A stretch of DNA of 64,000 nucleotides from an uncultured Planctomycetales bacterium (GTDB taxonomy: Bacteria; Omnitrophota; Gorgyraeia; Zapsychrales; JANLHA01): positions 7,616 to 71,615 of the forward strand of contig CAZAXH010000009.1 of NCBI GenBank assembly GCA_964489065.1, given 5' to 3'. Below the pieces are notes generated by a model. It was not told the origin of the DNA. It did no database searches and saw nothing but the letters and a program-made list of their open reading frames with translations. The stretch's first letter is position 1; each line of letters starts with the position of its first letter. Positions 26,031 to 53,967 of this stretch are shown here, piece after piece. A program made the position numbers and the translations under genes.

Positions 26031-26042
26031 AAACAAACCTCG

Positions 26043-32500: not shown

Positions 32501-33469
32501 TCACGTGTTTCTCGTCCAGGCTAATATTCTTTCCGCCACGCTCCGCGCGTCCATCTGATAATGCCGATGAATGTGCTCCCGACCGCAGAATTCACGGCAG
32601 TCCCCGTCCGGCCAGGCCATCCTAAAAAAAGGAACCCGGCATCCCGCATCCGCGCACACTTCGATTAAAGAAGTCCCCAGCCCGCCAATCCGGGAGTTCT
32701 CTTCCAAAGACACAATCCGGGGAGAATGAAGCATTACGTCCAGCAAGGCCTGTTCATTCAGCGGCTTGAGGCGGTAAACATCAAAAACGCCGACGGAAAG
32801 CCCGACACGGGATAAAATTTCCTTCGCCGCGATGGCCTGGTGAACCATAAGGCCGGTCGCCAGGATCGAAAGGTCTTTTCCCGCCCGGAGCTGCGCGAGC
32901 CCCTCCCGAAAACCTCCGGCGGCTTCTTCATAAAGCACCGGCAGGCAGCCTTTCTCCAGCCGGATATACACCGGGCCCAGGTGTTCATACGCAAGGCGAA
33001 CACTCGCCTGGGTCAGGAGCGCGTCAGAAGGGTTGTAAATCGTCATGCCCGGTAACGTCCGCATCACCGCGATATCATGCAGAGCGTGGTGCGTCGGCCC
33101 GTCCCCGCCGTACATAACCCCGGCGCCGATCCCCACCACTTTGACCGGGAGGTTCATGCAGCAAAGGTCGATTTTAATCTGCTCAAGGCAGCGCAAAGTC
33201 ACAAACGGCACGATGCTGTAAATAAAAACCGTCTTGCCGGCCATCGCCAGCCCGGCAGCGACACTCACCATATTTTGCTCGGCGACGCCGACGTTAAAAT
33301 ACTGCTTTGGAAAATCCTGTTTAAACCGCTGAAGGCTGAACGCCCCCATATCCGCGGTCATAAAAATCACGTTTCGATCCTCGCCGGCCAAGCGGTACAG
33401 CTCGTCAAAAAATGCGTCCCGGACATCCACCCCGGCCGAAATTTTATTTTCAAGCCCTTTCGTCAACAT
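32501..33469 (-). CDS. transketolase, C-terminal (pyrimidine-binding) subunit of a split transketolase
   Basis: 322 aa with the Pyr domain and transketolase C-domain. It overlaps the N-terminal subunit gene by 7 nt. Confidence 0.8.
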   Translation of the reverse strand: MLTKGLENKISAGVDVRDAFFDELYRLAGEDRNVIFMTADMGAFSLQRFKQDFPKQYFNVGVAEQNMVSVAAGLAMAGKTVFIYSIVPFVTLRCLEQIKIDLCCMNLPVKVVGIGAGVMYGGDGPTHHALHDIAVMRTLPGMTIYNPSDALLTQASVRLAYEHLGPVYIRLEKGCLPVLYEEAAGGFREGLAQLRAGKDLSILATGLMVHQAIAAKEILSRVGLSVGVFDVYRLKPLNEQALLDVMLHSPRIVSLEENSRIGGLGTSLIEVCADAGCRVPFFRMAWPDGDCREFCGREHIHRHYQMDARSVAERILAWTRNT

Positions 33470-34299
33470 GACATCCCCTTTAACGCGTCAAACGCCCGCG
33501 CCGCCTGTTCCCCCTTCGGCACGCCGTGGTGCCATTCCAGACAACTCTCCATAAAAGGGACGCCTTTACCTTTAACGGTTTTGGCGATAATCATCAAGGG
33601 CCTTACGGACGTTCGTTCCCTGTTCCCCGTCAAAGCAGACAATAAAGAGTTAAAGTTATGTCCATCGACCTCGCTGACGTCCCACCCGAAGGCCTTCCAT
33701 TTTTCAGCCAAAGGGTCAAGCGCCGTACAATCTTCCAACCTGGCCGTGACACACATACCGTTATTATCCACGACCGCAATAAGGTTCCGGAGTTGATGCT
33801 GGGCGGCGAACATGGCAGATTCCCAGACCGCCCCTTCACAACATTCCCCGTCCCCCATAAGGACAAATGTCAGATAATCCGCGCCATCCAGCCGCGCCGC
33901 CAACGCCAGTCCGCAACCGACCCCCAGTCCGTGCCCCAGAGAACCGGTGTCCGCCTCTATCCCGGGAATGGAACGGTCCGGATGCCCACCCAGGATACAG
34001 CCGGGCTGCTGGTATCGCATCAGTTCCGTTTGCGGGAAAAAACCCTGATCAGCGAGAATACAATAAAGCGCTTCGCAGGAATGCCCCTTGCTTAAAATAA
34101 ACCGGTCCCGGCCGGGCCAATCCGGCTGATGAGGGTTAAGCCGCAACACCCCGCCGTAATAAAGCGCGACCAAAATATCCGTGCAGGAAAACGCCCCGCC
34201 GATGTGGCCTTTGCCGGCGCGCGCAATCATCTCAAGCGTCTGAATCCGGACATCCATGGCTTTTCGGGACAAGAATAAAATAGTGCTATCCGTCGGCAT
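33463..34299 (-). CDS. transketolase, N-terminal (ThDP-binding) subunit of a split transketolase
   Basis: GHIGGAFSCTDILVALYYG and GDGECCEGAVWESAMFAAQHQLRNLIAVVDNNG (the GDG...NN ThDP motif). Confidence 0.8.
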   Translation of the reverse strand: MPTDSTILFLSRKAMDVRIQTLEMIARAGKGHIGGAFSCTDILVALYYGGVLRLNPHQPDWPGRDRFILSKGHSCEALYCILADQGFFPQTELMRYQQPGCILGGHPDRSIPGIEADTGSLGHGLGVGCGLALAARLDGADYLTFVLMGDGECCEGAVWESAMFAAQHQLRNLIAVVDNNGMCVTARLEDCTALDPLAEKWKAFGWDVSEVDGHNFNSLLSALTGNRERTSVRPLMIIAKTVKGKGVPFMESCLEWHHGVPKGEQAARAFDALKGMSC

Positions 34300-35815
34300 G
34301 CTCGTGCTTTCTCTTAAAAGAAATTTTTATATTCCGTAAAATCCGGGCCAGCACGCCTTCCAACTTCGTGGTCGTTCTTCCATGAAAGGCGTTGCACGCC
34401 AGACGCCATACCCGCCGGGGATGGGTTAAAAGCATCAGACTGTAGAAATGGCTTAGCAGCGCGAATCTCATCACGCTCAATGTGCGCGGGCCGAAATGCT
34501 CCGACCAGGACACGGCTTTGCTGAGGTCGGCGTAGCCGAATAAGTTCAGAAAATAATCATCGGATAATATCAATTTCTTCCGCCGCAAAAAATCATTGAA
34601 CAATTCCGAGCCGGGGTAAGGGATAAACGGAAACACATTGAGCTCCTGTAACCCCGTCAACGCCAAACGCGACACCATCCGGAACGTTTGGAAAAAAGCC
34701 TTCCAGCCTTCCTGGGGTAACCCGATAATGATGTTCGTACTCAAGTTCATCCCCACCTCAAGGCCATCCCGAATCAGTTGAAACATCTTTTCCGGATCGA
34801 TCTTCTTACGGACGCTTTCTAAAACATCCCGGGAGCCCGATTCCATGGCAAAGTCCAGATCCCGGCAACCGGCCTGCCGCATCCGTTCCAGCACAAAACG
34901 GTCAACCGCCTCGGTGCGCAGCGTGGGCAGCTGCCAAGTCACCCTGATTTTACGCTGTATTATTTCCTCACACAAGCCTATTATATTTTCTTTTTTGATG
35001 ACAGCCGTCAAATCGGAAAACACAAAATTGTCCGCATGATATTCCTTTATACAATGCTCCATCTCATCCACGATGTCCCGCGCGTTCCGGGGGACCCACG
35101 GACGGCCCCACATATGCGTGTTGGAACAAAAGGTACATTGGTAGGGACAGCCGCGCGTGGCCAGGATCGGGATCGTCCGCCCTCTCCGGATATGATAGGT
35201 ATACCCACGGGATAAATAATTCTCCAAAGGCACCAGGTCCCATGCCGGCCAGGGCAGGGCATCAATATCATGGATCCTCGGCGCGCGGGGTGTCTGGCGA
35301 AGCGCTCCCCCTTGAGGAAGGCGGATGACCAGACCGGCAACTTCGGTAAGAGGCGTCTTTTGTTGGAGCGCCTGTAAAAATTGTTCCGCCACCCTTTCCC
35401 CTTCGCCCACGACGCAAATATCCAAAGCCGGGCAATCCTTGAGGCAATACTCGGGCAGCGCGCTCACGTGTTCCCCACCGGCAAAAAACACGCTTCCGGG
35501 GTGCCACTCCCGCACCTGGCCTATCAATTCCCGATGGAAAGGCCAATCCTGGGAAAACATGCAGGTAAAACCAAATACATCCGAAGGTTTAAGCCGGGTA
35601 CGCAGCGCAGAAACGGGCATTCCGTGCCGGATAAAGGATCCCCGGACGATCTCGGCCCGGGAAATATCTTCCCCGCACATGTCAACGATGTCTACGTCAT
35701 GGCCGGCCATGCGCAAGGCAGCCCCGAGATAAACAACGCCTAAATAAGGGACAAGTTGCGCGCCCATGAACCCCCGGCTGCTGTAAGCAGGGGGACGGAT
35801 AAGGGTTACTTTCAT
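34286..35815 (-). CDS. B12-binding (class B) radical SAM enzyme
   Basis: N-terminal B12-binding domain (MKVTLIRPPAY...DIVDM), then ATRGCPYQCTFCSN CxxxCxxC. Confidence 0.75.
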   Translation of the reverse strand: MKVTLIRPPAYSSRGFMGAQLVPYLGVVYLGAALRMAGHDVDIVDMCGEDISRAEIVRGSFIRHGMPVSALRTRLKPSDVFGFTCMFSQDWPFHRELIGQVREWHPGSVFFAGGEHVSALPEYCLKDCPALDICVVGEGERVAEQFLQALQQKTPLTEVAGLVIRLPQGGALRQTPRAPRIHDIDALPWPAWDLVPLENYLSRGYTYHIRRGRTIPILATRGCPYQCTFCSNTHMWGRPWVPRNARDIVDEMEHCIKEYHADNFVFSDLTAVIKKENIIGLCEEIIQRKIRVTWQLPTLRTEAVDRFVLERMRQAGCRDLDFAMESGSRDVLESVRKKIDPEKMFQLIRDGLEVGMNLSTNIIIGLPQEGWKAFFQTFRMVSRLALTGLQELNVFPFIPYPGSELFNDFLRRKKLILSDDYFLNLFGYADLSKAVSWSEHFGPRTLSVMRFALLSHFYSLMLLTHPRRVWRLACNAFHGRTTTKLEGVLARILRNIKISFKRKHEHADG

Positions 35816-35822: not shown

Positions 35823-36860
35823 TCATGTTTTTAAATCTTCCGTGCTACAACAGCTGGTTCCTTTATTTTTCTTGTAAATCGGATGGGCCCACATGCTGGA
35901 GATGAGGTAACGAAGGCCTTTGTCCTTCACATTTCCGAAGGAATGCGGGAACGTGACGCAGAGCTGAATATCACCGTAAGGAGAGATATTAAGTATCCGC
36001 CCTCTTAACGCCTGGCACACCTTGGTTTTGCCCTTTACGGAATACGCTCCTTCAATAAACGCGAACGAAGGGTCCATATTTTCTATCACCAGCCTCTTTT
36101 CCGACTCCGACAGCTCTATCTCTTTCTTCTTGACCCATTCTCCCGAGATGATCGGGAATAATATCCTGATGCCCGCGGCCCGGAGTGATTTCGAAAATTG
36201 AATAACCGCGGTCAAAGCGCTGTCATCACGGGGGGTCGCGAAACTTTTAATCCTCCTCCGGGTGACGTATGTGGACACAATACAGGGGATGTTCTCCTCA
36301 TGGCAGCCCCGCACCGCCTCCACCGCCCGGCGGTACACCCCCGGCAGGCCGCGCAGGCAGTCATGCTCCTTTTCCTCCACGCTGTCCAGGCTGACATTAA
36401 TGCAACTGATCCCCGCGTCTTTAAGATTTTTGATCATCGGACGGCTCAAAAACCAGGCGTTGGTCGTCAAAGAGATATACAGCCCCAAACTTTCCCCGTA
36501 GCGGACCAGCTCAACGATGTCTTTGCGCAAAAGCGGCTCCCCTCCGAAATAATCCACCTTGGGGATTCCCATCGCAACAGCCTCCTCCAGGATTTTTTTG
36601 ATCTCTTCGGTCTTTAATTCCCGATTCAAGTCAGCGTCGCTGAAATAATTGGATACCGAACAATGCTTGCAGCAGCAGTTACACCGGTACGTCACGGACA
36701 ACTCGATAAGCCAGGGAATTTTTCGGCGGAATATTTGTGTTAAAACCCAGTACCGGGACATCACGTACGCTTTCCGGGGTGTCATGCGGCTTAAGCCAAC
36801 CCGGGCGTAGAGCCGCATCATCCCGAGGAAACGTTTAAAATCTTTCCATAAACTTTTCAT
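35823..36860 (-). CDS. radical SAM enzyme with C-terminal SPASM/twitch-type auxiliary cluster domain
   Basis: VTYRCNCCCKHC (CxxxCxxC), GGEPLL, and a C-terminal Cys cluster (CQALRGRILNISPYGDIQLCVTFPH...GTSCCS). The start is taken at ATG (MKSLWKD) with GAGGGA 7 nt upstream; the track start is an upstream TTG. Confidence 0.7.
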   Translation of the reverse strand: MKSLWKDFKRFLGMMRLYARVGLSRMTPRKAYVMSRYWVLTQIFRRKIPWLIELSVTYRCNCCCKHCSVSNYFSDADLNRELKTEEIKKILEEAVAMGIPKVDYFGGEPLLRKDIVELVRYGESLGLYISLTTNAWFLSRPMIKNLKDAGISCINVSLDSVEEKEHDCLRGLPGVYRRAVEAVRGCHEENIPCIVSTYVTRRRIKSFATPRDDSALTAVIQFSKSLRAAGIRILFPIISGEWVKKKEIELSESEKRLVIENMDPSFAFIEGAYSVKGKTKVCQALRGRILNISPYGDIQLCVTFPHSFGNVKDKGLRYLISSMWAHPIYKKNKGTSCCSTEDLKT

Positions 36861-36926
36861 GTTAAATCCCTCATGATAACGACGTCGATTCAAGGATATA
36901 TATAAGCTCCCATGATTTGCCCGTGT

Positions 36927-36992
36927 TCAAGCGAGCCCTATTTCTCCGCAAAAAACTGTGGTGTCGGGCTCTAATTCACTCTGGCAACCCAT
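36927..36992 (-). CDS. candidate 21-aa peptide (MGCQSELEPDTTVFCGEIGLA) immediately upstream of a SPASM radical SAM gene; speculative
   Basis: ATG with AAGGGG 5 nt upstream. It lies on the same strand in the 177-nt gap between the PHP gene stop and the radical SAM start. It is a short ORF only, with no homology claim. Confidence 0.15.
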   Translation of the reverse strand: MGCQSELEPDTTVFCGEIGLA

Positions 36993-37037
36993 GGGAGCCC
37001 CTTGTGAATCCACCTCCCCATCCTATACAATTCCCGC

Positions 37038-37937
37038 TCACAGGCAATCTTTACCGACAAAAAAGGCTCCTCTATCGGGTTCCAGGAAAACCTTGTTTTC
37101 TTCTTCATAACGGCTGATATCATCCCTCGCGTGCAGGCGCCGCGTCGCGCAGTCCCAGCACAGATAGTGCCCGTTACAGCAGGCCACGCGCGCCACCTCG
37201 ATCTTGCCGCACTCGCTACAACGAAATCTTTTCTTAAAAACCCGAACCCGCATCGATTTGCCACACACCAGGCACAACGTAGCATGAAGAGCACACGGTT
37301 CCAGGTCTCGGTATTTCAAAAAATTCTTCATGATAAACTTAAACGGCAAAGGGAGCGGTTTTCCGGAAACCCTGGTCCGGCCCCTCCGGATCGCGTCCAG
37401 GATTTCCTCCGGGCGATCGGCCAGGACTTCCGTGTACCCCTGTCCGATAAACGACGCGTCCGTTGTGTCCGTTCCCCCGACATGAGCCAAAGGCAGCCCC
37501 CGCGCCAGGTAACGGGCCAGCAGGTTATAAACGCCCACGGAACCAAGCGCCGCGTTGTAAACCTCCACCGCGTCAAAAGGCAGACGACGGATTCTCCCAC
37601 CCAATCCAAGATGCAAATACGGGTGAACCGCGACCGCGAGCCCCCCCTGGGCATGGATTTGAGCGAGGGTCTCTTCCACACTCAGGAAGTCCTGAATCTT
37701 CCTTTTTATCCCCAAGGCGATCACGTGCCCGGCTGCCGTCCATATTTCCTGCCCAACAAGGATGACAAATTCCGGGAGCTTTTCCTGCAGCCAAACGGCG
37801 TGCGTGACGTTAAAAAAATTCGTGACTGCGAGCCCGTCCATGCCGCTCCGCCGCAGGCTCTCTTTGAGCTGAAACTCGTTCATAAACGTACGGCCGAACG
37901 ATTGGGTGTGTGTATGCAAATCGAGTTTAAAAGACAT
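37038..37937 (-). CDS. PHP-domain metal-dependent phosphoesterase with C-terminal zinc-ribbon
   Basis: N-terminal LDLHTHTQSF...GLAVTNF (PHP motif I/II). C-terminal CLVCGKS...CSECGK...CCNGHYLCWDC Cys cluster. Confidence 0.65.
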   Translation of the reverse strand: MSFKLDLHTHTQSFGRTFMNEFQLKESLRRSGMDGLAVTNFFNVTHAVWLQEKLPEFVILVGQEIWTAAGHVIALGIKRKIQDFLSVEETLAQIHAQGGLAVAVHPYLHLGLGGRIRRLPFDAVEVYNAALGSVGVYNLLARYLARGLPLAHVGGTDTTDASFIGQGYTEVLADRPEEILDAIRRGRTRVSGKPLPLPFKFIMKNFLKYRDLEPCALHATLCLVCGKSMRVRVFKKRFRCSECGKIEVARVACCNGHYLCWDCATRRLHARDDISRYEEENKVFLEPDRGAFFVGKDCL

Positions 37938-39043
37938 TAATCCTCTTTCTCCCGGGGATCCGCCTTACGGCTCCGCCAGGCAATCTGCGCCATTTCCCAA
38001 AAAATTTTCGGATAAGACCGAGGCGAAAGCATGAGCGTGTTGGACATGGGCAGGCCCCAGTGACAGGTACAGTCCTCCCTCTTCATCCTCCGACGGAACT
38101 GTTTCATCTCCTCCGAAGCAAGGATTTGTTTCAGGTCATAGCCGTTAGACCTCAACTGCCCGACGGGCTCCCACAAGGGTTCGCACGGGAACACGGTTCC
38201 GGTCTCGTTGATGACAACGACCGCCCGGCCCGCCCGGCAGATTTTATGCATATCTTTGCGTTCCAAAATATCCTTCAGCAAATCATTCTTGGCGGCCCGC
38301 AACGCCATGGTGAAAATGGAATGAACATCCGTCACCCGGCGGGCTCGGGCCCGCGACCGCAGCCGCCCGCAAAAACGGAAATACTTCTCCCAGCCAAAAC
38401 GCATCGCCTCGGCGTTACAGACGCTCCCGTGGGCGACAGAAAAAACGACCCGGTCGAATTCGGGAAAATCATTCCGGAGGATTTCAAACAGCGGCTCCAT
38501 GTGGTCCTGGTTATAGGCGGAATAGACCACACACGCCTTCAAGCGGAAATTCCGGTACCGTTTTCTTAACGGCACCAGCATCCGGTATGTCTCCCGCACC
38601 TTCTTAAACCCATCTTTAAGGCCACGGATTTCATCATGAATCTCCGGCGGGCCATCAATGGAAAGCTGTGTGTCCACGATCATATTCGGACAGGCCCGCG
38701 CAATTTTTTCAATCTGGGACGCCACCCGGTCCGGGAAAAAGGCGTTGGTCGGCAGATCAACGACGGCCGGAGAACAATGACGGTATAAAATTTCAACAAT
38801 ATGGTACAAGTCCGGCCGGAGGAACGGTTCCCCTCCGGAGATCCCCAGCACGTTGATCAAAGGGATCCTGCGGGCAATCTTTTCATATTCGTCAAGAGTC
38901 AGTTCATCTTTAGCGGCGTTGCTGTCCATGTTCTCTCTGTAAAAACACATTTTGCACGCCGCGTTGCAGCGGGCCGTGACAAAAAAGATCATGTAAGAAG
39001 GCCAGCGGCCGGTTTTTAAAAGACGGGTCAACAGAGACGGCAT
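37937..39043 (-). CDS. radical SAM enzyme (SPASM/twitch-type C-terminal domain)
   Basis: FFVTARCNAACKMCFY (CxxxCxxC), GISGGEPFL, and a C-terminal FPCEP...CTCHWG Cys cluster. Its stop overlaps the PHP start. Confidence 0.7.
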   Translation of the reverse strand: MPSLLTRLLKTGRWPSYMIFFVTARCNAACKMCFYRENMDSNAAKDELTLDEYEKIARRIPLINVLGISGGEPFLRPDLYHIVEILYRHCSPAVVDLPTNAFFPDRVASQIEKIARACPNMIVDTQLSIDGPPEIHDEIRGLKDGFKKVRETYRMLVPLRKRYRNFRLKACVVYSAYNQDHMEPLFEILRNDFPEFDRVVFSVAHGSVCNAEAMRFGWEKYFRFCGRLRSRARARRVTDVHSIFTMALRAAKNDLLKDILERKDMHKICRAGRAVVVINETGTVFPCEPLWEPVGQLRSNGYDLKQILASEEMKQFRRRMKREDCTCHWGLPMSNTLMLSPRSYPKIFWEMAQIAWRSRKADPREKED

Positions 39044-39044
39044 G

Positions 39045-39863
39045 TCATTTCTCCTTCGGAACCGCCCGGTAAGCCGCAGTCTTCAAGAAGAAACGGATCG
39101 GGAGCAGCCGGGCCACGAAAGCTTTGGCGGCATTGGGCCAGTCGGTCAGGACCCGGACCTTGTTTTCCGTTAAGCCTTTTAACCCGATCCGGGCGACATC
39201 CTTGGGGTCGGACGCGCTATGCCAGTGCTGCACTGCCCCGCCGGTCGCCCGGGATAAAAACCGGCTATGCGTCCGGCCGGGGTAAAGCCCGGTGACATGG
39301 ACGCCGTGCGGCAGCATTTCCTGGTGCAGGGCGTCGGTCAGCCCGATGATAAAATGTTTCGTCGCCGCGTACACGGCCGAGCCGGGGATCGTGTAAAACG
39401 AAACGACCGACCCGACGTTTAAGACCCCGGTTCCGGAACGACCTTTCATCACAGGCAAAAAACTCCGGCACAGGAGGACCACGGCGTCTATATTGACCTT
39501 TAACATGGACAGCCCGGTTTCCTCCGGCATGGAAATAAAGTCCCCCATATATCCGAATCCGGCGTTATTGATGAGAATATCCACCTGATGGCGGCTCTGG
39601 ACGGCCCGGCACATCTCGCGGACTTTCTGTTCCTCTCCCAAATCAAAACAACAGGTCTCCATAACCGTCTGCCGCGCCGGCTGGTCCAGTTCGGATTTCA
39701 GGGACGACAGCGCCTCCTGACTGCGTCCGCAAAGAATCAAACGGCTGCCGCAGGCCGCCAGAATGCAGGCCATCTCCCTCCCGATCCCCGCTGTCGCACC
39801 GGTCAAGAGCACTGTTTTACCCCTGTACCATTCTTTCCAGTTATGGTTTTGAGTTCGAGCCAT
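39045..39863 (-). CDS. short-chain dehydrogenase/reductase
   Basis: KTVLLTGATAGIGREMA...NNAG...YAATKHF (TGxxxGIG, NNAG, YxxxK). RBS AAGGAGAA lies 5 nt before the ATG. Confidence 0.8.
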   Translation of the reverse strand: MARTQNHNWKEWYRGKTVLLTGATAGIGREMACILAACGSRLILCGRSQEALSSLKSELDQPARQTVMETCCFDLGEEQKVREMCRAVQSRHQVDILINNAGFGYMGDFISMPEETGLSMLKVNIDAVVLLCRSFLPVMKGRSGTGVLNVGSVVSFYTIPGSAVYAATKHFIIGLTDALHQEMLPHGVHVTGLYPGRTHSRFLSRATGGAVQHWHSASDPKDVARIGLKGLTENKVRVLTDWPNAAKAFVARLLPIRFFLKTAAYRAVPKEK

Positions 39864-40158
39864 TGTGTTCTCCTTGAATTTTCCTCTTTCCCCATTCCTT
39901 GTTAAAACCGTTGCGTTACCCTTTTATTCGAAAACCCGCCTGGCCGCCATTATTCCGTTGCCCGGAGAAAGGAGACAAAACGCGGGGTCCGGGCAGCAAC
40001 GCCGTCCCAACAAAGTCATTCCACAAAATTCCCCGGTAAACCCGAATCGATATAAAAAAATCCCGCTCCTTCCCGATTTCCCGAATAAGCGGCTCAAGAA
40101 AAAAACAGGCCATAATACAAAAGACCAGCGACAGGAATAAAATTTTAAACAAGGTTGA

Positions 40159-41100
40159 TTAGGACAACCCCTTCTTCTTGCGATAGTGCATAATAAAAAG
40201 CATCAAATCTTGATTCAGATGAAGACGCAACTCTTCCTCATAATATTTTTTTGGCCTAAGGCCTTTTTCCCGCATTAAAGTCATAATGGCAGAATCCCGG
40301 GCGGCATTCTGCCCGTGACCCAACCCCTGCCAGCAGAGACTCCGGTAAGAATAGGCTTCCAAGTTTTCTGGATCCGCCAAAATGGTTTGGCTGAAATACT
40401 TCACCGCCTCAACGTATTCCTTATTTAAATGATGAATCAATCCGGCATAATACAGAAAGCCCGGACTCCGGGGATAATTTTCCAACCCCATCATCACCAC
40501 TCGCTTCGCGAAGGGATACTGGCCAAGCTGATAATAACTTTTGACTAACGCAAAGACAAGCCGTTCTTCATCATACCGGGCCCGGGAAATCACCCTCTGC
40601 AAAAGCTGGGACAGGACCGCATCCCCGTTGGTATTCAATTTCCCCTCCGCGGCCATGATCGTGGGCATCAATTCCGTCATCAGGCGAAGGCTGTGGTTAA
40701 GACTTTTAATGGCTTCGGCATACCGGCCCTGCTCATACAAAATCATGCCCTGATCCCAGTATAAAGAATAATTAAAAGGATCCGCCTGAATCGCGCGAGC
40801 ATAAGACGACAAAGCCCCGGCATAATTTTCCTGATAATAGTAACAAAACCCCAGGGAGCCGTGCAAAAGGCCGCTTTCCGGGGATAAATGCGTTAGCCAG
40901 GAATAATAATGAACCGCCAGCCGGAACATCCGGGAGTCATAATCCGCCTTTCGGGTTTCAAACTTCATCAAATACGGCTCAACTATGTTCTTTTCGTAGT
41001 TGATACAATTGATCAAAAACTGCTCCTGGTCGACAGACATCGCCGCCAGCAATATACCCCCCAGGCAGGGGACAATCATACGCTGATAGAATATCCTCAT
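40159..41100 (-). CDS. TPR-repeat protein
   Basis: Multiple 34-aa W-LG-Y-A-F-P type helical repeats (AIQADPFNYSLYWDQGMILYEQGRYAEA and others) in 313 aa. Confidence 0.6.
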   Translation of the reverse strand: MRIFYQRMIVPCLGGILLAAMSVDQEQFLINCINYEKNIVEPYLMKFETRKADYDSRMFRLAVHYYSWLTHLSPESGLLHGSLGFCYYYQENYAGALSSYARAIQADPFNYSLYWDQGMILYEQGRYAEAIKSLNHSLRLMTELMPTIMAAEGKLNTNGDAVLSQLLQRVISRARYDEERLVFALVKSYYQLGQYPFAKRVVMMGLENYPRSPGFLYYAGLIHHLNKEYVEAVKYFSQTILADPENLEAYSYRSLCWQGLGHGQNAARDSAIMTLMREKGLRPKKYYEEELRLHLNQDLMLFIMHYRKKKGLS

Positions 41101-41159
41101 GGTTTTTATTATATAAAACCTGCTTAATTCCTGGTTTCACGCGAGAGGGCCTAAAACCT

Positions 41160-42233
41160 TTAAATGAAATTCACATGATCATCGTTGAGATCAAGATAAT
41201 CATTGATCAGCTTATTCCTCTGGTCAAAAACACAATGATGGCGGCATTCTGACGCGGCGTCGAATGTCTGGAACCGTTTGCGCGCAGCTTCACTGAACCA
41301 TATCTCCTTAAACCGCTGCGTGTTCAGGTCACCGAGTTCTCCGCCGGGCGTATAAGCTTTGTCATGGCACAGGTAAACGTTCGCGTCCGCCGCCACCACG
41401 GTCACGATTTGCTGGATGGGACAGCGGCTGTACCCGCGCCGACATAACGTGTTCATTTCAAAATCATGTTCGTATTTGTTGATGACTTTAAAACTTCCGT
41501 CCTCCAGCTCATCTTGGGCTCTCTGAATATCACGGATGACCTGTGCCTTAAAAGGCTCGTGCACAGTGTCCAGATTATCAGCCACCATGGCCGTCACTTT
41601 AATATGGTTCGCGCCCAGGTCCTTAACCAGCCGGGCCATTGCGGTTACCTGCCCGGCGTTAACCGGCGTCACCACAAAATTGACCCCCAGCTCACACTTT
41701 GGATTCTTAATCCGGGAAAAATTTCTGATGTTGTCACAAATCTCATGGAAGCAGGATGCGGGAATACCCCGGATCTTGGCGTAAAGCGACGCCTCACAGC
41801 TGTCCATCGAGATCCGAACCCATTTCGCCTGAGCCAGGACACAGGCACTCTGGTCTTTCAGGAGTTGTCCATTGGTGATGACCGACAGGTCTACGCCACC
41901 ATCCAGCAGCATGGCCATGGCCTCGTTGATGCGCGGGTACAACAAGGGCTCCCCGCCGCCGCTGAACGTGATCGCCTTGACTCCCATCTGAAGGATATCT
42001 TCCACCAGGGCCATCATAATCTCATACGGGAGTTTGTCCTGATAATTAAAACGTGTACGCAGCTTGAGGTCCTGGTCATGATAACTGCAGTACGAGCAGT
42101 GGTGATTACACGCGTTAATGGGTTTAATGCGCATATAGACCGGCGGCGTGACCATGTTATTGCGGATCGCTTCCAGCTTTTCGGCATGCCGGAAAATTTT
42201 CAGATAACTGTATGGGCTGATTTTCTGACTCAT
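41160..42233 (-). CDS. radical SAM enzyme with SPASM-type C-terminal domain
   Basis: INACNHHCSYCSY (CxxxCxxC), FSGGGEPLL, and a C-terminal CRRGYSRCP...YLCHDKAY...CRHHC Cys pattern. Confidence 0.7.
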   Translation of the reverse strand: MSQKISPYSYLKIFRHAEKLEAIRNNMVTPPVYMRIKPINACNHHCSYCSYHDQDLKLRTRFNYQDKLPYEIMMALVEDILQMGVKAITFSGGGEPLLYPRINEAMAMLLDGGVDLSVITNGQLLKDQSACVLAQAKWVRISMDSCEASLYAKIRGIPASCFHEICDNIRNFSRIKNPKCELGVNFVVTPVNAGQVTAMARLVKDLGANHIKVTAMVADNLDTVHEPFKAQVIRDIQRAQDELEDGSFKVINKYEHDFEMNTLCRRGYSRCPIQQIVTVVAADANVYLCHDKAYTPGGELGDLNTQRFKEIWFSEAARKRFQTFDAASECRHHCVFDQRNKLINDYLDLNDDHVNFI

Positions 42234-42377: not shown

Positions 42378-44516
42378 TCATTTTCTCCGCCGCAGGGCAA
42401 CCAGGTATTTCCCTGTCACGACCGGCGTATAATGCTTGCGCAGATACTGCACGACTAAATACAAATCCGGATAGTGCGTGTAATAAATGGCCGGGAGCCC
42501 CCCCGCGAACAATTTCTTCTCGATAAAAACAAGCGGCGGCTTCTCTTCGTCAAGCTGACGTAAAACTTTCTGCAGGCGCTCCAAGGTAATGAGATCCGTC
42601 CCGCCGAAATCCAGCTGATCCATGGCCCGGGGCGTAATCAGCCGGAAATAATAAAAAAACGGCTTGCGGTCAGCCTGGATCAGGGTGGCCGTATCCCAGG
42701 CGCTGATCAGGCAGACTTTGTCATCAGGGCCGGTCATCCGGCGGATCAGGTCAACGTCTTTAGGCGAGATAAAATGCGCCTTTTGCGCCGCGGCAAAGGT
42801 TTCTCGCCGCTCGCTATAAGAAATCCCGGATATGTTCCATAACCGGGGATAATTGATAAACCCCTGATCCGTGACCATGAGCAGGGTCCAGACAAGCAGG
42901 CCGCCGGCCGCGATCACCCGCCGCCGGGGCGGTGGCAACAGGGACAGGGCCACATAAAACCAATACCCCGACACCATGACAAAAGGCACGATAACCGCGT
43001 AAAAGCTCGTCGGCCCCGAACGGCAGACATAATAATGATACACCCCCAGCCCGTAGACACTCCAGACGACAGCCAAAATGTTGCGCGGATGCGCGGCCCG
43101 CAGGAAAACCAGAACGGCCACAAAAGCACAGGTCAGGATATACACCAAAGGCACCAGCAGGCCGAGAAAGAAGTTAAAAAACTGCCGGTCCTGTAATGCG
43201 GTGCTGATCGGCAAAGGCCCGAACCCGCCGGTAAAGAGACGAATCATCTCTCCCGTGTTCTGCCAGAATTCGGGCTGGAACGCCTGCTTCCCGATTAATA
43301 AATACAGGCCGGACGCCAAGACAAGCCACGGGACAAAAATAAGACTCAGTCCGAACATCCATGCCGCGCGGGAGGGGAACAGCCTTTCCCGGCACGCTGG
43401 GACAAGCATGGTCAGGAAAAGATACGCGTAGAATGCAAGCAGCAGGTATAACCCGGTATCGCTGAGATAACACAAAGCCACGCCGGAAAACAGCGCCGCG
43501 GCGGCAAGAAATTTTTTGCCGCCGGTTTGAACATGCCGGACCAGCATCAGAAAAAAGATGCTGTCCCAGAAATAGCGGATGATCGTCGCGCTGGGGGTCT
43601 GCCATATAAAATGCTGCGGCCCGTGCGAAAATAAATGCAGCTTGAGCATGACCAAGACCGCTCCAAATGCCAAAAGGGGATTCCGGAACCACAGGCAAAG
43701 CGCCCCGTAACTGATCGCGAAATACACAACAGCCACCCCCATCAAAACACCCAGGACCGAAGTATACTCAAACCCGCCGCAGGCCCGCGCCAAGATGGCC
43801 AGCACCGCCGGCATGCCCACCCCGTAAGCGCTGATCGTGTCCACGTTTAAAACATTGCCCTTCAGAAAAGCCCAACCCGGCGACATAACAAAAGAGTCCA
43901 GGTGGATGTAATTATCCGTGATGCACGTTAACGCCACGTCCGGCGGGACATACACAATAAGGAAAATTATCGACACGGCCAGGGCATGCCCCCAAACGCG
44001 GAAGGCCGGAGAGATACGGCCAAGCATTCGCTCCATTCCCCCGCAGGAAAAGCTCCGCTTGCAGAAAGGCCAGCAGACTTTAATCCCGATACAACACAGC
44101 AATACAAGAATAAAGAAAACCTGCAGAAAACGGACCGGTCCGTACACCGTCAGTTTGAAGGCGAACAGCAACAGGACAGCCAGCAGCGCGGTTTCCGTGC
44201 AAGCGTAACGGCGCAGAGATGAGCCCAGGTCTCCAGAAGACAATTTCCGGCGGAACAGGAACACCCCCGCCGCTTGAAGGCCGAGCACAGCCAAGACAAA
44301 CATCCGGTAAAAAAACATTTCCCGCTCCGGGGAAAAAAGGTTTTTATACGGGCCCAAAACCGTGAAAGTGGCGTCCTCAGGCACCGGGACAAAATGGAAA
44401 GCGAACGTGAGCAGCGCCAGCGCCTGACATCCCAGCGCAACCGCGATCATGGTAATATAAAAAACATTCCTGATCTGCGGCGTGCACTGCTTCTTTATGT
44501 CGTCTTTAAAAAGCAT
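42378..44516 (-). CDS. large polytopic membrane protein (about 15 TM) with C-terminal soluble domain; possible glycan polymerase/GT-C-like
   Basis: 712 aa, hydrophobic throughout except the last ~170 aa. No diagnostic motif recognised. Confidence 0.4.
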   Translation of the reverse strand: MLFKDDIKKQCTPQIRNVFYITMIAVALGCQALALLTFAFHFVPVPEDATFTVLGPYKNLFSPEREMFFYRMFVLAVLGLQAAGVFLFRRKLSSGDLGSSLRRYACTETALLAVLLLFAFKLTVYGPVRFLQVFFILVLLCCIGIKVCWPFCKRSFSCGGMERMLGRISPAFRVWGHALAVSIIFLIVYVPPDVALTCITDNYIHLDSFVMSPGWAFLKGNVLNVDTISAYGVGMPAVLAILARACGGFEYTSVLGVLMGVAVVYFAISYGALCLWFRNPLLAFGAVLVMLKLHLFSHGPQHFIWQTPSATIIRYFWDSIFFLMLVRHVQTGGKKFLAAAALFSGVALCYLSDTGLYLLLAFYAYLFLTMLVPACRERLFPSRAAWMFGLSLIFVPWLVLASGLYLLIGKQAFQPEFWQNTGEMIRLFTGGFGPLPISTALQDRQFFNFFLGLLVPLVYILTCAFVAVLVFLRAAHPRNILAVVWSVYGLGVYHYYVCRSGPTSFYAVIVPFVMVSGYWFYVALSLLPPPRRRVIAAGGLLVWTLLMVTDQGFINYPRLWNISGISYSERRETFAAAQKAHFISPKDVDLIRRMTGPDDKVCLISAWDTATLIQADRKPFFYYFRLITPRAMDQLDFGGTDLITLERLQKVLRQLDEEKPPLVFIEKKLFAGGLPAIYYTHYPDLYLVVQYLRKHYTPVVTGKYLVALRRRK

Positions 44517-44657: not shown

Positions 44658-46880
44658 TCAACACATCTCTTCCCGGCACGACATAAAAACAAGACCGATA
44701 AAAAACCCCCAAAAAACAACCAAAACAAGAAACAAACTCCCCTGCCCCAGCGGCGGATGAAACTCAAAACGCACGTCATTGTTTCCGGCCAGGAGCCATA
44801 TCCCCTTAAAGGCGTAATTGCTGCGGAACACCCGGACGCGGACGCCGTTGACATACGCCCTCCACCAGGGATGATAACTGTCGTTATACACAAGAAATTT
44901 ATCTTTGCCAAACGCCGTCGTGAGCCGGATCCTGTCGGAGCCAAATCCCGTCACCCGGAAACTTTCCGACCCGCTTGTTACGGCCCGCGCGGGAGCGACT
45001 TCCTCAGGTCGCTCCCACCCGCGGACATCCTGCATAGTGTCGGTCATGATCACGGCGCGATTGCGCAAACCCGAAAGATCATCCCCCAGACGGTTAAAAT
45101 CGGTTTGTGCCTCCGTAGCGGCATACACATGGTCATACAAAACGAATTTGTACCGGGCATAAGAGTGCAGCCGTTCTCCCACCCGTTGGAAAAGCTTCTT
45201 GCTCCAGACCGTCGGATAACCGTACAGAGAGGAAGAATAGCCCGGGGCGTCTTTCTGTTCGATCATGTGCCTGTAAAATGTCTGATAAAAACCATGGTCA
45301 TCCAGGGATGATCCCGTTCCCTTGTTTCCCAAAGGGCGCAAAAAAACAAAGTTCGGGGAGCTCGGCCTGTCCTCCCGGCTCTGTTCCGCAACAGGGGCCT
45401 CCACCCGGCGGGCGCTGTCCATATACTGGGAATAAACCGTAACAGGCTGCAAAAGCGAAAGACACGCCACGAGCCCGCAGGCCAGGCCAGGACGGTTTTT
45501 GAACAGTCCCCAACCCCAAGCAATCATAAAAAACAAACTGGCGGCAACCGTCATAAGGCCAACACCCCCTCCCTCCGGCAACCGGAACAGGAACATCCCG
45601 CAGCAGAGATGCACAAAAAGAATCCATGCCCATGTCCATTTCTTAACTTTAGAAAACGCCCCTTCCTCGACAAAGAAACTCCGGACCTGCGCCAGTGTCC
45701 AGAGGATATACGCCGCCAATAAAAAAGGAAGAAATAAAAAAACATTACGGAACAGATTAAAACCCGGAACGACCTTGAATAAAACACCATAAACAAAAAC
45801 GGTATCCGGGATGCAAATCAAAAAAAGCAAAAAAGTAATCAGAAAAAGGGCTAAAACTTTTTTCTGCCCCCGGGTTGCCAGGGACGCCAAAGAAAGAATA
45901 TGGGTAACCAGCGGCACGTAAAAAATCCTCTGATTAAAGAAATCAAATCCCAGGAAGGCGGCGCAGCCCTGGATATAAAGAAACAGCCGGGGGACACTGA
46001 ACAACAGGAATATATTAAAAAAGGAGAAATCCCGCGCGAATTCAACGAGGGGGACTCCTGACCCTTTCACGTCGGTGAAAGAAAGTGCTGTCGCCCGCAC
46101 CTGCGCGGTCAGGCCGTCCCGGAAAAACAGCCATGTTGTGACCGGGCCCCAGGCCGCTATCGCAAGCCCGGCTAACCCGACGACACCCAGCCCTTTATGA
46201 CGCCGGATAAACGTCATCATCCGGGACGCCCGAGGGAAAACCTCGCGCGGATATATCAACCCTATAATCAGGACCACCAATGCCATGACGGTCAAAAAAT
46301 AAAAAGGAATATATGTGGTCATGATGATCATCAGGGCAAAGACGGAGCCCAGGAAAGACTTCGGGGACCATGTTTTAAGCCAATCCGACACAAAGAAAAA
46401 AAACCAGACCGCCGGGACAAAAATGAGGATATAGGTCAACTGGACAAACAGCGTCATCCCGAGGGAAGAAAACATAAGGAAAACAAAAGCGCAGTAAGCC
46501 AGGCAGGAGTCCCCCAACACGCTTTTCGCAAGATGGTAAAAGCCGAGCAGTCCGACCCCCCAGTAGAAAACAACCGTCGCGACAAAGGCATGATACGTCC
46601 CCCAGCCCAAATGACTTAACAGCAAAACAAGAAACCAGACCGGGTTAAACTCCCCCGCCTGATGAACATGCCCCATCCCCGACAGCAAATAAGGATTCCA
46701 GGACGGAAAAACGCCGGAAGCCAGATGGTCCAAATAATACTTAACGACCGCATAAATAGCAAACGTATCCTCGCTTAAAAACGTTTTATTCAGGATAAAA
46801 TCACGGACCAGAAACAGCCACCCGCTAAAAGGCAAAATAAATTTCAAGAAAACACAATAACGGGATGATGACAATGTCAT
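44658..46880 (-). CDS. large polytopic membrane protein, YfhO-like/GT-C-superfamily candidate
   Basis: 740 aa with about 13 TM helices followed by a ~230-aa C-terminal extracytoplasmic domain. The architecture resembles YfhO-type glycosylation proteins. Low-specificity call. Confidence 0.35.
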   Translation of the reverse strand: MTLSSSRYCVFLKFILPFSGWLFLVRDFILNKTFLSEDTFAIYAVVKYYLDHLASGVFPSWNPYLLSGMGHVHQAGEFNPVWFLVLLLSHLGWGTYHAFVATVVFYWGVGLLGFYHLAKSVLGDSCLAYCAFVFLMFSSLGMTLFVQLTYILIFVPAVWFFFFVSDWLKTWSPKSFLGSVFALMIIMTTYIPFYFLTVMALVVLIIGLIYPREVFPRASRMMTFIRRHKGLGVVGLAGLAIAAWGPVTTWLFFRDGLTAQVRATALSFTDVKGSGVPLVEFARDFSFFNIFLLFSVPRLFLYIQGCAAFLGFDFFNQRIFYVPLVTHILSLASLATRGQKKVLALFLITFLLFLICIPDTVFVYGVLFKVVPGFNLFRNVFLFLPFLLAAYILWTLAQVRSFFVEEGAFSKVKKWTWAWILFVHLCCGMFLFRLPEGGGVGLMTVAASLFFMIAWGWGLFKNRPGLACGLVACLSLLQPVTVYSQYMDSARRVEAPVAEQSREDRPSSPNFVFLRPLGNKGTGSSLDDHGFYQTFYRHMIEQKDAPGYSSSLYGYPTVWSKKLFQRVGERLHSYARYKFVLYDHVYAATEAQTDFNRLGDDLSGLRNRAVIMTDTMQDVRGWERPEEVAPARAVTSGSESFRVTGFGSDRIRLTTAFGKDKFLVYNDSYHPWWRAYVNGVRVRVFRSNYAFKGIWLLAGNNDVRFEFHPPLGQGSLFLVLVVFWGFFIGLVFMSCREEMC

Positions 46881-46909: not shown

Positions 46910-47485
46910 TTAAATTTTCTGCGTGCACCGGGAAATCACCCGGGCCAAAGCATCCGCAACCATAAAAAAACTCGGGCGGTTGGTGACCCGATATTTTCCC
47001 CCGCACACCGTAATACTGCGCGCAGCCAGCAACCGGGCGATGCGGCGGTTCAGGATGACGCGGTTATTATACCGCTCATAAAGCTCACCCAGGGTTAATC
47101 CCTGCGGATACCGCCGGTATAATTCCCTGATCAACCTTAAGCGGATTGAAGATTCGTACGGGCCGAAAACACACAAGACATAAAGAAAACTTAACAACGC
47201 ATAAATACCCCAAGACAGCAAAAGCAAAAGCGCGTGATAGGCCCACGTTTGGAAAAACATATTTCCCGAGAAGACCACAAACAAGCCCGCGTTCACAAAG
47301 CTGCCCAAGATAAAAAGCGCCATAATCCATTTCAGCACGCCTCCTTCGCTAATAAAACGGAACCAAACGAACTGAATCACCAAAAAAACGGTAAAACTGA
47401 TAAAAGCCGTCAGGCAAATTGTGATATCAGGATTCATGAATACGCCCCCCTTTTTCAGTTTCTTATCCGCCCCACCCACGGCCAT
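46910..47485 (-). CDS. small membrane protein with C-terminal winged-helix-like domain (paralog 1)
   Basis: Four N-terminal TM helices, then GLTLGELYERYNNRVILNRRIARLLAARSITVCGGKYRVTNR, a wHTH-like segment. Confidence 0.4.
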   Translation of the reverse strand: MAVGGADKKLKKGGVFMNPDITICLTAFISFTVFLVIQFVWFRFISEGGVLKWIMALFILGSFVNAGLFVVFSGNMFFQTWAYHALLLLLSWGIYALLSFLYVLCVFGPYESSIRLRLIRELYRRYPQGLTLGELYERYNNRVILNRRIARLLAARSITVCGGKYRVTNRPSFFMVADALARVISRCTQKI

Positions 47486-53951: not shown

Positions 53952-53967
53952 CCGTTCTCCCGGAGTT

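Follow-up and report, generated by a model that had tools for sequence, protein, structure and literature searches.

What do radical S-adenosylmethionine (SAM) enzymes act on when their genes stand among those of glycosyltransferases and sugar epimerases: peptides or sugars? The question is raised by a 64,000-nucleotide stretch of contig CAZAXH010000009.1 (assembly GCA_964489065.1, positions 7,616 to 71,615; referred to as the window, from whose first nucleotide all window coordinates are counted), which encodes four radical SAM enzymes (rSAMs) with SPASM/twitch-like C termini, designated rSAM_A to rSAM_D. A first-pass annotation had offered two readings, in which these enzymes either modify a ribosomally synthesized and posttranslationally modified peptide (RiPP) or tailor sugars. 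We found that the rSAM-rich locus, which occupies ~32 kb of the minus strand (26043-57743), is most likely a cell-surface glycan locus of a Candidatus Omnitrophota genome. We consider it probable that the locus tailors glycan sugars and that such sugars are the substrates of its rSAMs; each individual mechanistic step, argued by analogy, we grade far below this general statement. Gene content, synteny, domain identity, conserved cysteine patterns, gene fusions, and glycan context are observed directly.

Two modules are joined in this locus, a conserved module 1 and a variable module 2. The sugar branch of the first-pass annotation is supported by conserved neighborhoods in ~30 loci of several phyla, by fusions of glycosyltransferase family 2 (GT2) domains to rSAMs near rSAM_B, and by the proteins of known structure most similar to rSAM_C and rSAM_A, which are the nucleotide or nucleotide-sugar enzymes BlsE, DesII, and MoaA. 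We compared the window proteins by tblastn with 32 loci fetched from other assemblies (designated by L-numbers). At 89% identity, rSAM_B matches a protein of a Candidatus Omnitrophota metagenome-assembled genome (MAG). In ~25 MAGs, labeled Omnitrophota, Elusimicrobia, Firestonebacteria, "Planctomycetia," or Brocadiaceae, the gene order SDR2-rSAM_B-PHP-rSAM_A-B12_1-TKN-TKC-SDR1-GT2a-Epim1(-B12_2) is conserved at 45 to 70% identity (SDR, short-chain dehydrogenase/reductase; B12, rSAM with a B12-binding domain; TKN and TKC, halves of a split transketolase; Epim, epimerase-type extended SDR). The Delta1 (Desulfobacterota) symbiont of Olavius algarvensis has this order too but lacks the PHP gene. 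This cassette comprises 9 to 11 genes, and the four rSAMs of the present genome become up to six in some relatives; some versions carry an extra pair of a B12-rSAM and an rSAM_A-like protein. Others, such as L005 (6418-7506) and L017 (11933-13054), have an additional DUF362 protein between PHP or a B12-rSAM and rSAM_A; it contains a 2x[4Fe-4S] ferredoxin domain and might serve specifically to supply the rSAMs with electrons.

Every occurrence of the cassette lies inside a glycan locus. Its neighbors in L043 encode NeuB, an NTP_transferase protein, a PseB/LegB-type dehydratase, a GHMP kinase, DegT, and an MptE-like protein; we take the MptE-like family (PF01973) to be that of the Maf flagellin glycosyltransferases. 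Immediately upstream of rSAM_B in L017 are genes for Wzi, a Wza-like exporter, a PMT_2 membrane protein, a GHMP kinase, and an NTP_transferase protein. The surroundings in L014 include a GT1 glycosyltransferase, an ABC exporter, GDP-mannose 4,6-dehydratase, and a second split transketolase, and those in L003 include PMT_2 and ABC-2 transporter proteins.

The rSAM_B clade is also linked to sugars by gene fusion. A search with an rSAM_B profile against the 1.84 billion representatives of a library clustered at 50% identified 1,210 representatives at an E value of ≤1e-30. Among the best 150 matches, 17 are 618 to 785 aa long, and all seven long relatives tested that have the rSAM domain in their C-terminal half (P0370, P0382, P0386, P0388, P0404, P0413, and P0439) carry an N-terminal GT2 domain, which resembles EpsD, TuaG, AglG, or HfsG. 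Because these relatives are GT2-rSAM fusions, the rSAM_B clade is tied to glycosyl transfer. An NCBIfam scan of ten rSAM_B relatives placed none of them at a family cutoff.

rSAM_C belongs to a very widespread family (~356 aa, ~55% identity across phyla) that lies outside the core cassette. In Lachnospiraceae and Riflebacteria, its homologs adjoin a split transketolase, an epimerase, and a methyltransferase. The Lachnospiraceae homolog (GFI30290.1; 54% identity; L041, 1-17071) is encoded next to fliD, fliS, and flgN in an island that also encodes further rSAMs (two of SPASM and one of B12 type), a split transketolase, and epimerases, along with a large glycosyltransferase, a methyltransferase, and a formyltransferase; it is listed in 432 assembly-index blocks and is present in hundreds of metagenome assemblies. 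Its GenBank annotation, "AlbA," is probably wrong. In a Riflebacteria MAG (L042), the order rSAM_D-GT9-Epim2-rSAM_C-TK-N-TK-C-methyltransferase is found at 40 to 69% identity (69% for the Epim2-like protein). Flanking genes encode GT8, a TPR-GT41 protein, DegT, and a formyltransferase, and another encodes a protein whose Methyltransf_13/14 domains presumably mark a sugar C-methyltransferase.

As for the extent of the locus, the first-pass annotation had described a 6.4-kb cluster; the actual unit is about five times that size (Table 1). The six genes it named (rSAM_A, PHP, rSAM_B, SDR2, TPR, and rSAM_C) are all present as called, on the minus strand, and Pfam matches agree with each rSAM call, including that of rSAM_D, as well as with the PHP, SDR, and tetratricopeptide repeat (TPR) assignments. 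The clustering is confirmed and far beyond chance. The six genes are not one unit: SDR2-rSAM_B-PHP-rSAM_A lie within the conserved core, and rSAM_C and the TPR protein belong to the variable part. The rSAMs are embedded among sugar genes, as had been claimed, and the Pfam and NCBIfam domain content of the locus agrees. Three cobalamin-type rSAMs had been overlooked, as had three thiamine diphosphate (ThDP) enzyme systems, two polyprenyl-phosphate-type GT2s, and two membrane proteins with 11 and 12 transmembrane segments.

In transcript order, the locus begins with rSAM_D, a GT9-like glycosyltransferase, a nucleoside diphosphate (NDP)-sugar epimerase, E1alpha, E1beta, an SDR, and a ThDP enzyme resembling acetolactate synthase (ALS) and YerE; it continues with a GT2, a SAM methyltransferase, two small membrane proteins, the 12-segment YfhO-like protein, the 11-segment protein, rSAM_C, and the TPR protein. 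Past a 295-nt gap follow SDR2, rSAM_B, PHP, rSAM_A, B12_1, the split transketolase, SDR1, GT2a, Epim1, and B12_2, and the 3' end is formed by a carbamoyltransferase, an SxtJ-like protein, and a membrane open reading frame (ORF) of 54 aa. In the second half of the locus, intergenic spacing ranges from -14 to +72 nt, with one exception of 177 nt; the PHP start overlaps the rSAM_B stop by 1 nt, and rSAM_B is separated from or overlaps its neighbors by a single nucleotide. Such tight, overlapping packing suggests an operon. Good ribosome-binding sites precede the ATG starts of rSAM_A, PHP, rSAM_B, and SDR2. The 295-nt gap 5' of SDR2 carries promoter-like sites, which are only suggestive; in the same scan, terminator-like sites were no more frequent than expected by chance, and an Rfam scan found no riboswitch, such as a cobalamin riboswitch, inside the locus.

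Table 1. Features of the rSAM locus and other features of the window, arranged from high to low coordinates (scores are Pfam bit scores)
Feature	Coordinates	Strand	Description
B12_3	60937-62877	-	B12-binding + Radical_SAM; N-terminal membrane domain of ~270 aa with six helices; locus membership uncertain
unk675	57992-60019	-	Coiled-coil-like protein, 675 aa
Variable module	47990-57743	-	Methyltransferase, GT2b, ALS/YerE-like ThDP enzyme, SDR3, E1beta, E1alpha, Epim2, GT9, rSAM_D (Pfam, NCBIfam)
rSAM_D	56826-57743	-	rSAM in variable module; Radical_SAM 30.6
GT9	55910-56839	-	GT9-like glycosyltransferase
Epim2	54921-55913	-	NDP-sugar epimerase
u191, u168	46910-47969	-	Small membrane proteins (191 and 168 aa), 3 to 4 transmembrane segments each, weak winged-helix-turn-helix-like C-terminal tail
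YfhO-like	44658-46880	-	12 transmembrane-like segments; YfhO 21.4 (cutoff 28.5); candidate GT-C glycosyltransferase
mem712	42378-44516	-	11 transmembrane-like segments; no Pfam match; candidate GT-C glycosyltransferase
rSAM_C	41160-42233	-	Twitch-like rSAM of very widespread family, outside core cassette; Radical_SAM 66.2, SPASM 33.8
TPR protein	40159-41100	-	Accessory component; several Pfam TPR families
SDR2	39045-39863	-	Classical short-chain dehydrogenase, first core gene; adh_short 146.5
rSAM_B	37937-39043	-	Twitch-like rSAM, marker of core cassette; Radical_SAM 46.6, SPASM 29.9
PHP protein	37038-37937	-	Metal-dependent phosphoesterase with C-terminal Cys/His-rich, zinc-ribbon-like domain; PHP_C 31.4 (cutoff 21.3)
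PHP C-terminal domain	37038-37700	-	Residues 215-299; CxxC ... CxxC ... C..H..C..C
rSAM_A	35823-36860	-	AhbD/NirJ/BlsE-like rSAM, twitch-like C terminus; Radical_SAM 78.5
B12_1	34286-35815	-	B12-binding + Radical_SAM; core member, 55-96% identity
TK-N	33463-34299	-	Split transketolase (TK-N and TK-C: Transketolase_N, Transket_pyr, Transketolase_C); core member
TK-C	32501-33469	-	Split transketolase; core member
SDR1	31694-32479	-	FabG-like; adh_short_C2 161.7; core member, 60-85% identity
GT2a	30896-31621	-	Polyprenyl-phosphate glycosyltransferase-like GT2 without transmembrane helices; core member
Epim1	29926-30894	-	Extended SDR, NDP-sugar epimerase/reductase type; Epimerase 164
B12_2	28314-29882	-	B12-binding + rSAM; kept at cassette 3' end in several loci
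Carbamoyltransferase	26448-28310	-	Carbam_trans_N/C 335 and 235
SxtJ-like protein	26043-26441	-	SxtJ
54-aa hydrophobic membrane ORF	25872-26036	-	Directly downstream of SxtJ-like gene and carbamoyltransferase
c-di-GMP-I-GGC riboswitch variant	23293-23370	-	Rfam 59.4 (gathering 59)
tRNA gene	22757-22830		
tRNA gene	21546-21619		
902-aa protein	16927-19635	-	TPR + ankyrin repeats
MdoG/MdoH-like pair	6476-10541	+	Osmoregulated periplasmic glucan

All four rSAMs exceed the Pfam gathering score for Radical_SAM (PF04055; 29.5 bits) and have a CX3CX2C motif near the N terminus (C60/64/67 in rSAM_A, counted from the ATG; C26/30/33 in rSAM_B; C42/46/49 in rSAM_C; C32/36/39 in rSAM_D). The gathering score for SPASM (PF13186/TIGR04085; 21.5 bits) is passed by rSAM_B and rSAM_C only, as rSAM_A reaches 20.1 bits over model positions 5 to 50 of 67 and rSAM_D 19.6 bits over positions 5 to 40. 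The SPASM motif, CX9-15GX4C-gap-CX2CX5CX3C-gap-C, binds two auxiliary [4Fe-4S] clusters; twitch is a truncated SPASM domain with one auxiliary cluster, ligated by cysteines that flank a β-hairpin and by two downstream cysteines. Beyond the rSAM motif, alignment with homologs identified conserved cysteines 153, 186, and 193 plus C-terminal 282, 301, 337, and 338 in rSAM_A; invariant cysteines 171 and 225 plus C-terminal 269, 287, 325, and 327 in rSAM_B; invariant cysteine 180 plus C-terminal 271, 289, 330, and 334 in rSAM_C; and, from two sequences only, C-terminal 225, 241, 271, 277, and 280 in rSAM_D. The seven-cysteine SPASM motif is absent from these C-terminal sets. Each rSAM instead has a C-x15-18-C pair around a predicted β-hairpin (E275-278/E283-285 and E277-280/E285-287 in AlphaFold2 models of rSAM_B and rSAM_C). 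Downstream of this pair come another two or three cysteines in a C(x0-5)C pattern. Because just four or five C-terminal cysteines are conserved, in this arrangement, the four rSAMs look twitch-like, with one auxiliary cluster, rather than like full two-cluster SPASM enzymes. The earlier SPASM/twitch label was right as to fold class, but twitch-like domains seem likelier than full SPASM domains.

Pairwise identity among the four rSAMs is only 25 to 29% and confined to the core (BLASTP), so four different enzymes are encoded. The families of rSAM_A and rSAM_B are sharply bounded, each with >100 clusters at ≥47% identity before similarity falls off abruptly. None of the four reached a curated cutoff in an NCBIfam scan, where the best matches scored 34 to 115 bits against cutoffs of 380 to 650. 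The best matches of rSAM_A were AhbD (115 bits) and NirJ2 (113 bits), both with cutoffs of 500, and we rejected rSAM_A as an AhbD/NirJ heme-modifying enzyme given these scores and the absence of tetrapyrrole genes nearby. The BlsE model scored 74 bits with rSAM_A and 46 bits with rSAM_C (cutoff 400), and the MoaA model 97 and 65 bits, respectively (cutoff 284); judged by these sequence scores, the resemblance of rSAM_A and rSAM_C to BlsE, DesII, and MoaA is at the superfamily level only. Among solved structures, sequence searches with rSAM_A retrieved BlsE as the best relative and also MoaA, and the rSAM_C profile matched MoaA over nearly its full length, then BlsE, SuiB, DesII, and viperin. 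The AlphaFold2 model of rSAM_C (predicted local distance difference test [pLDDT] score, 84.3) is closest to DesII (TMq 0.70) and BlsE (template modeling [TM] score, 0.62/0.66) by Foldseek against the Protein Data Bank (PDB). That of rSAM_B (pLDDT 88.6) has a generic SPASM/twitch fold, with TM scores of 0.41 to 0.56 to SkfB, anSME, BlsE, DesII, and BtrN, and is equally distant from peptide and sugar enzymes.

Of the other members of the core cassette, SDR2 lies immediately upstream of rSAM_B in most related loci (45 to 90% identity). The metal-site motifs of the PHP protein (LDLHxH, GQE..GH, HP, E.YN, and DT) are intact and kept in 20 homologs, as are its C-terminal cysteines and histidine (C222, C225, C240, C243, C254, H257, C260, and C263). 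It matches the NCBIfam CehA/McbA metallohydrolase model at 71 bits (cutoff 80), and its sequence matched no solved structure; that it acts on a sugar phosphate is plausible. Its C-terminal domain, which may bind zinc or an Fe-S cluster, weakly matches the metal-binding selenoprotein MbdU (32 bits).

B12-binding (PF02310) and rSAM (PF04055) domains follow each other in B12_1, B12_2, and B12_3, which are of the cobalamin-dependent rSAM type as judged by domain architecture; none of the three reaches a curated NCBIfam cutoff. Among solved proteins, B12_1 is closest to AprD4, the sugar diol-dehydratase of the apramycin pathway (62 bits), and the NCBIfam AprD4 model scores 75 bits against a cutoff of 500. 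For B12_2, the best NCBIfam matches are BchE and HpnJ (~146 bits, below the cutoff). The architecture of B12_3, with its membrane domain, is unusual and may hint at a lipid-embedded substrate. The catalytic domain of GT2a is most similar to the polyprenyl-phosphate glycosyltransferase subgroup (ArnC/GtrB/DPMS type): its best PDB matches are ArnC, DPMS, and GtrB, and its best NCBIfam matches are AglJ (98.5 bits), dolichyl-phosphate hexose transferase (81 bits), and ArnC (51 bits), all below the equivalog cutoffs. The best NCBIfam match of Epim1 is GDP-L-fucose synthase (152.6 bits; cutoff 500). The 54-aa ORF at the 3' end may resemble SxtK, and the trio of carbamoyltransferase, SxtJ-like protein, and this ORF presumably parallels SxtI/SxtJ/SxtK of saxitoxin clusters.

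Module 2 differs among close relatives. In L007 and L008, whose cores are 82 to 96% identical to that of the window, the distance from unk675 to SDR2 is ~6 kb, compared with ~18 kb in the window, and the short interval contains only weak TPR-like (30 to 34% identity) and YfhO-like (29 to 39%) matches; nothing in it matches the ThDP genes, rSAM_C, or rSAM_D. The stretch from rSAM_D to rSAM_C therefore lies in an interval that varies among close relatives, as surface-glycan loci commonly do. rSAM_C together with the TPR protein was found only in the near relatives L002 and L009. unk675 itself adjoins the cassette in the closest relatives (85 to 94% conserved); it has one N-terminal transmembrane helix and a long, repetitive body rich in Glu, Lys, and Gln, and its gene lies in GC-poor DNA (GC 0.42) whose GC and AT skews are both strongly negative.

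The first-pass annotation saw in the TPR protein a possible scaffold or surrogate of a RiPP recognition element (RRE). This suggestion does not fit its distribution: the protein is not conserved with the rSAMs, and in the window as well as in L002, L007, L008, and L029 it is found near a YfhO-like polytopic membrane protein, so we reject it as an RRE surrogate. Some GT-C transferases (TMTC family) and GT41 enzymes bind protein acceptors via TPRs, and by this analogy the TPR protein is more likely to be an acceptor-binding partner of a membrane transferase than to play an RRE-like role. In L003 and L017, PMT_2 membrane proteins occupy the position of the two large membrane proteins. The genes u191 and u168 lie just upstream of these two in transcript order, between them and the methyltransferase; their products share no similarity with each other (BLASTP, E ≤ 1e-3) and could be assigned to no family, and a role as flippases would be a guess.

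How, then, do peptide substrates fare? Under the RiPP reading, the rSAMs would cross-link or epimerize a ribosomal peptide, the TPR protein would serve as a recognition scaffold, and the sugar genes might glycosylate the product. Peptide maturases do typically have SPASM-type C-terminal domains; Foldseek ranks SkfB, CteB, and anSME highest for rSAM_B and SuiB first for rSAM_C, and weak NCBIfam matches include WgkB, PapB, and ScmE/F among many others. The gene content argues otherwise. No gap between 25 and 63 kb contains a credible precursor ORF; the core gaps, at ≤177 nt, hold only ORFs of 26 to 28 aa with non-ATG starts, and no small ORF is conserved among the called genes of L002 to L006 or L043. 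An RRE spans ~85 to 100 aa, and because the CX3CX2C motifs begin at residues 26 to 60, the rSAMs have no room for the N-terminal RRE that the first-pass annotation had suggested looking for. Pfam scans of the window ORFs detected no PqqD-like protein, peptidase, or peptide (ABC) exporter. Across phyla, the partners of rSAM_A and rSAM_B are transketolase, SDRs, GT2, and epimerase rather than a small ORF, relatives of rSAM_B are fused to GT2 domains, and the recurrence of the TPR protein does not follow that of the rSAMs. We reject this branch and regard it as the least probable of the alternatives. Scarcely more credible is a system for protein or cofactor maturation (anSME-, AhbD/NirJ-, or tungsten-enzyme-maturase-like) that has come to lie beside sugar genes by chance. 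In NCBIfam, rSAM_A does match AhbD, NirJ2, and AhbC best, and the top matches of rSAM_C and of the B12-rSAMs include the tungsten cofactor oxidoreductase maturase and BchE, respectively, but at 89 to 148 bits against cutoffs of 380 to 650, and neither the window nor the related loci contain a sulfatase, aldehyde oxidoreductase, heme/siroheme, or nitrogenase-like gene. Chance adjacency is ruled out because synteny with sugar genes is conserved across phyla. An rSAM-rich Elusimicrobia cluster with nitrogenase paralogs (10.1101/765248) is a different locus, as the present one has no Nif-like genes.

Somewhat more weight, though still little, goes to a non-glycan membrane lipid or small molecule as the product (a hopanoid-, polyprenyl-, or ladderane-like head group or a phosphonate), which we consider unlikely; here the sugar-type genes would supply no more than a head group or would not be directly involved. 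B12_1 and B12_2 match the curated families HpnJ, HpnR, "lipid biosynthesis B12-binding/radical SAM protein," and P-methyltransferases at 83 to 165 bits, the B12-rSAMs also have subthreshold matches to ladderane-type models, rSAM_A and the rSAM_B profile resemble the tetraether synthase GDGT-MAS within the rSAM core, GT2a belongs with the polyprenyl-phosphate enzymes by similarity, B12_3 is predicted to be membrane anchored, and genome mining has reported "ladderane-like" clusters in Omnitrophota (PMC9902471). All these family scores are, however, 3- to 7-fold below the cutoffs; no squalene/polyprenyl synthase, fatty-acid synthase, phosphoenolpyruvate mutase, or glycerol-ether genes occur in the window or in annotated neighbor loci; and the genes that do accompany the cassette are for capsule export, NeuB, DegT, nucleotidyltransferase, and flagellar glycosylation. 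A lipid-linked sugar intermediate, moreover, is part of the glycan-sugar explanation and not a rival to it.

Some of our observations weigh against the glycan-sugar explanation itself. The assignments of its steps all rest on distant analogy, and all NCBIfam matches are far below their cutoffs. The Foldseek lists for rSAM_B and rSAM_C mix the peptide maturases SkfB, CteB, anSME, and SuiB with sugar enzymes at similar scores, so the fold leaves the substrate class undecided. The scanned region of the window yielded no nucleotidyltransferase or sugar kinase. GT2a (241 aa) contains no transmembrane-like segment, unlike ArnC, GtrB, and DPMS, and the GT-C assignment of mem712 and the YfhO-like protein draws on topology and a subthreshold YfhO score. 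The PHP protein may be accessory since it is missing from the cassette version of the Delta1 symbiont. The host labels of some cassette fragments, Patescibacteria, Jorgensenbacteria, and Vicingus (L016, L028, and L012), may be binning errors; these occurrences reflect either such errors or horizontal transfer.

For the glycan-sugar explanation, we infer every single reaction, carrier, and acceptor from the enzyme types present. Module 1 would consist of SDR2, rSAM_B, PHP, rSAM_A, B12_1, the split transketolase, SDR1, GT2a, Epim1, and B12_2, together with the carbamoyltransferase. The pathway would start with sugar activation, for which a GHMP kinase and a nucleotidyltransferase are present in related loci, and the sugar offered to the rSAMs may be nucleotide linked or polyprenyl-phosphate linked. 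Epim1 could oxidize or epimerize the activated sugar, the split transketolase could add a two-carbon unit by ThDP chemistry, as might the E1 pair and the ALS-like enzyme of the variable module, and SDR1 or the other classical SDRs could reduce the ketones so formed. The B12-domain rSAMs would methylate, dehydrate, or rearrange unactivated carbons, by chemistry like that of GenK, AprD4, or HpnJ, and rSAM_A might carry out an oxidative decarboxylation or an oxidation in the manner of BlsE or AhbD. rSAM_B would abstract hydrogen from a secondary alcohol carbon, leading to oxidation or epimerization, with SDR2 as the reducing partner that resets the ketone. The model for this pair is the two-enzyme logic of DprE1/DprE2 and AprD4/AprD3, of which rSAM_B and SDR2 would be an oxygen-independent counterpart. 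The PHP enzyme may dephosphorylate, for example, a sugar bisphosphate or a phosphorylated lipid-linked intermediate; GT2a would transfer the sugar onto polyprenyl phosphate; and the carbamoyltransferase would O-carbamoylate it. Module 2 (rSAM_D, GT9, Epim2, E1alpha/beta, SDR3, the ALS-like enzyme, GT2b, the methyltransferase, and rSAM_C) might make or decorate a second, branched or methylated sugar, and mem712 and the YfhO-like protein, possibly aided by the TPR protein, could deliver lipid-linked sugars to lipopolysaccharide, capsule, or a surface protein.

Our specific proposal, which we advance tentatively and hold to be possible rather than probable, is that the cassette is a strictly anaerobic radical route to an undescribed surface sugar that is extended or branched by ThDP enzymes and C-methylated or deoxygenated at unactivated carbons, in which rSAM_B and an SDR form an oxygen-independent, oxidize-then-reduce epimerization pair, and that the rSAM_B clade, including its GT2 fusions, is a general class of glycan-tailoring rSAMs. 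Enzymes of this clade might act on lipid-linked or polymer-bound sugars, including those of flagellin glycosylation in gut Lachnospiraceae.

To our knowledge, nearly all rSAMs known to act on sugars come from the biosynthesis of antibiotics (aminoglycosides, blasticidin, and desosamine). Radical-SAM-assisted sugar tailoring is not new as such; the conserved multi-rSAM surface-glycan setting is, and the cassette appears to be uncharacterized, as full-text literature searches found no published description of it. New and testable are its conservation in more than one phylum, the fusion of GT2 domains to rSAMs, and the connection with a common flagellar glycosylation island of Lachnospiraceae. 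If our reading is true, several mostly uncultured anaerobic phyla make unusual surface sugars, at least four new rSAM reaction types are to be expected, and a nameless clade of at least 1,210 sequence clusters, GT2 fusions included, gains a functional handle. Genome-mining pipelines should not call SPASM-type rSAMs in such loci RiPP clusters. Elsewhere in the window we noted a c-di-GMP-I-GGC riboswitch variant, two tRNA genes, and, unrelated to the rSAM locus, an MdoG/MdoH-like pair and a protein with TPR and ankyrin repeats (Table 1).

Among known systems, the locus resembles, by its protein sequences, a combination of sugar-acting rSAMs, ThDP branched-sugar enzymes, and polyprenyl-phosphate glycosylation, without belonging to a defined family, as all family-level memberships tested failed. 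By sequence, the solved enzymes nearest to rSAM_A and rSAM_C are BlsE (cytosylglucuronate decarboxylase) and DesII (TDP-4-amino-4,6-dideoxyglucose deaminase/dehydrogenase), which are also the best structural matches of the rSAM_C model; they are rSAMs for nucleotide-linked sugars in sugar pathways, as proposed here, but identity is only 15 to 18%, and the known ones belong to antibiotic pathways rather than surface-glycan loci. The twitch sugar dehydrogenases and epimerases BtrN, SpeY, HygY, and NeoN act on secondary alcohols of sugars and thus provide a model for rSAM_B with SDR2. The four C-terminal cysteines flanking a β-hairpin in rSAM_A, rSAM_B, and rSAM_C fit this type, and BtrN and SpeY appear in the Foldseek lists, if weakly (query-normalized TM scores of 0.34 to 0.43); unlike BtrN-type enzymes, rSAM_B has the two further invariant cysteines 171 and 225, and it shows no family membership at the sequence level. 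The SPASM RiPP maturases and related enzymes SkfB, CteB, SuiB, PqqE, and anSME share the rSAM and C-terminal Fe-S domain fold and are the top Foldseek class for rSAM_B; in contrast to them, this locus has four or five of the seven SPASM cysteines, a glycan context, and no RRE, precursor, protease, or exporter.

In apramycin 3'-deoxygenation, the rSAM AprD4 dehydrates and the SDR AprD3 reduces, a pairing mirrored here by B12_1 with SDR1 and by rSAM_B with SDR2. ThDP enzymes of the YerE (yersiniose) and AviB1/AviB2 type attach two-carbon units to keto-sugars; by enzyme type, the E1alpha/beta pair, the ALS/YerE-like enzyme, and the split transketolase can be likened to these and to transketolase/transaldolase extension, and we know of no pathway that joins such enzymes with four to seven rSAMs. 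The three-component polyprenyl-phosphate systems ArnC/ArnEF/ArnT, GtrB/GtrA/GtrC, and CsbB/GtcA/YfhO differ in that GT2a lacks transmembrane segments, the GT-C candidates are subthreshold, and the small membrane proteins bear no GtrA or ArnE/F signature; the likeness lies in GT2a, which is closest to ArnC, DPMS, GtrB, and AglJ, and in the presence of both large and small membrane proteins.

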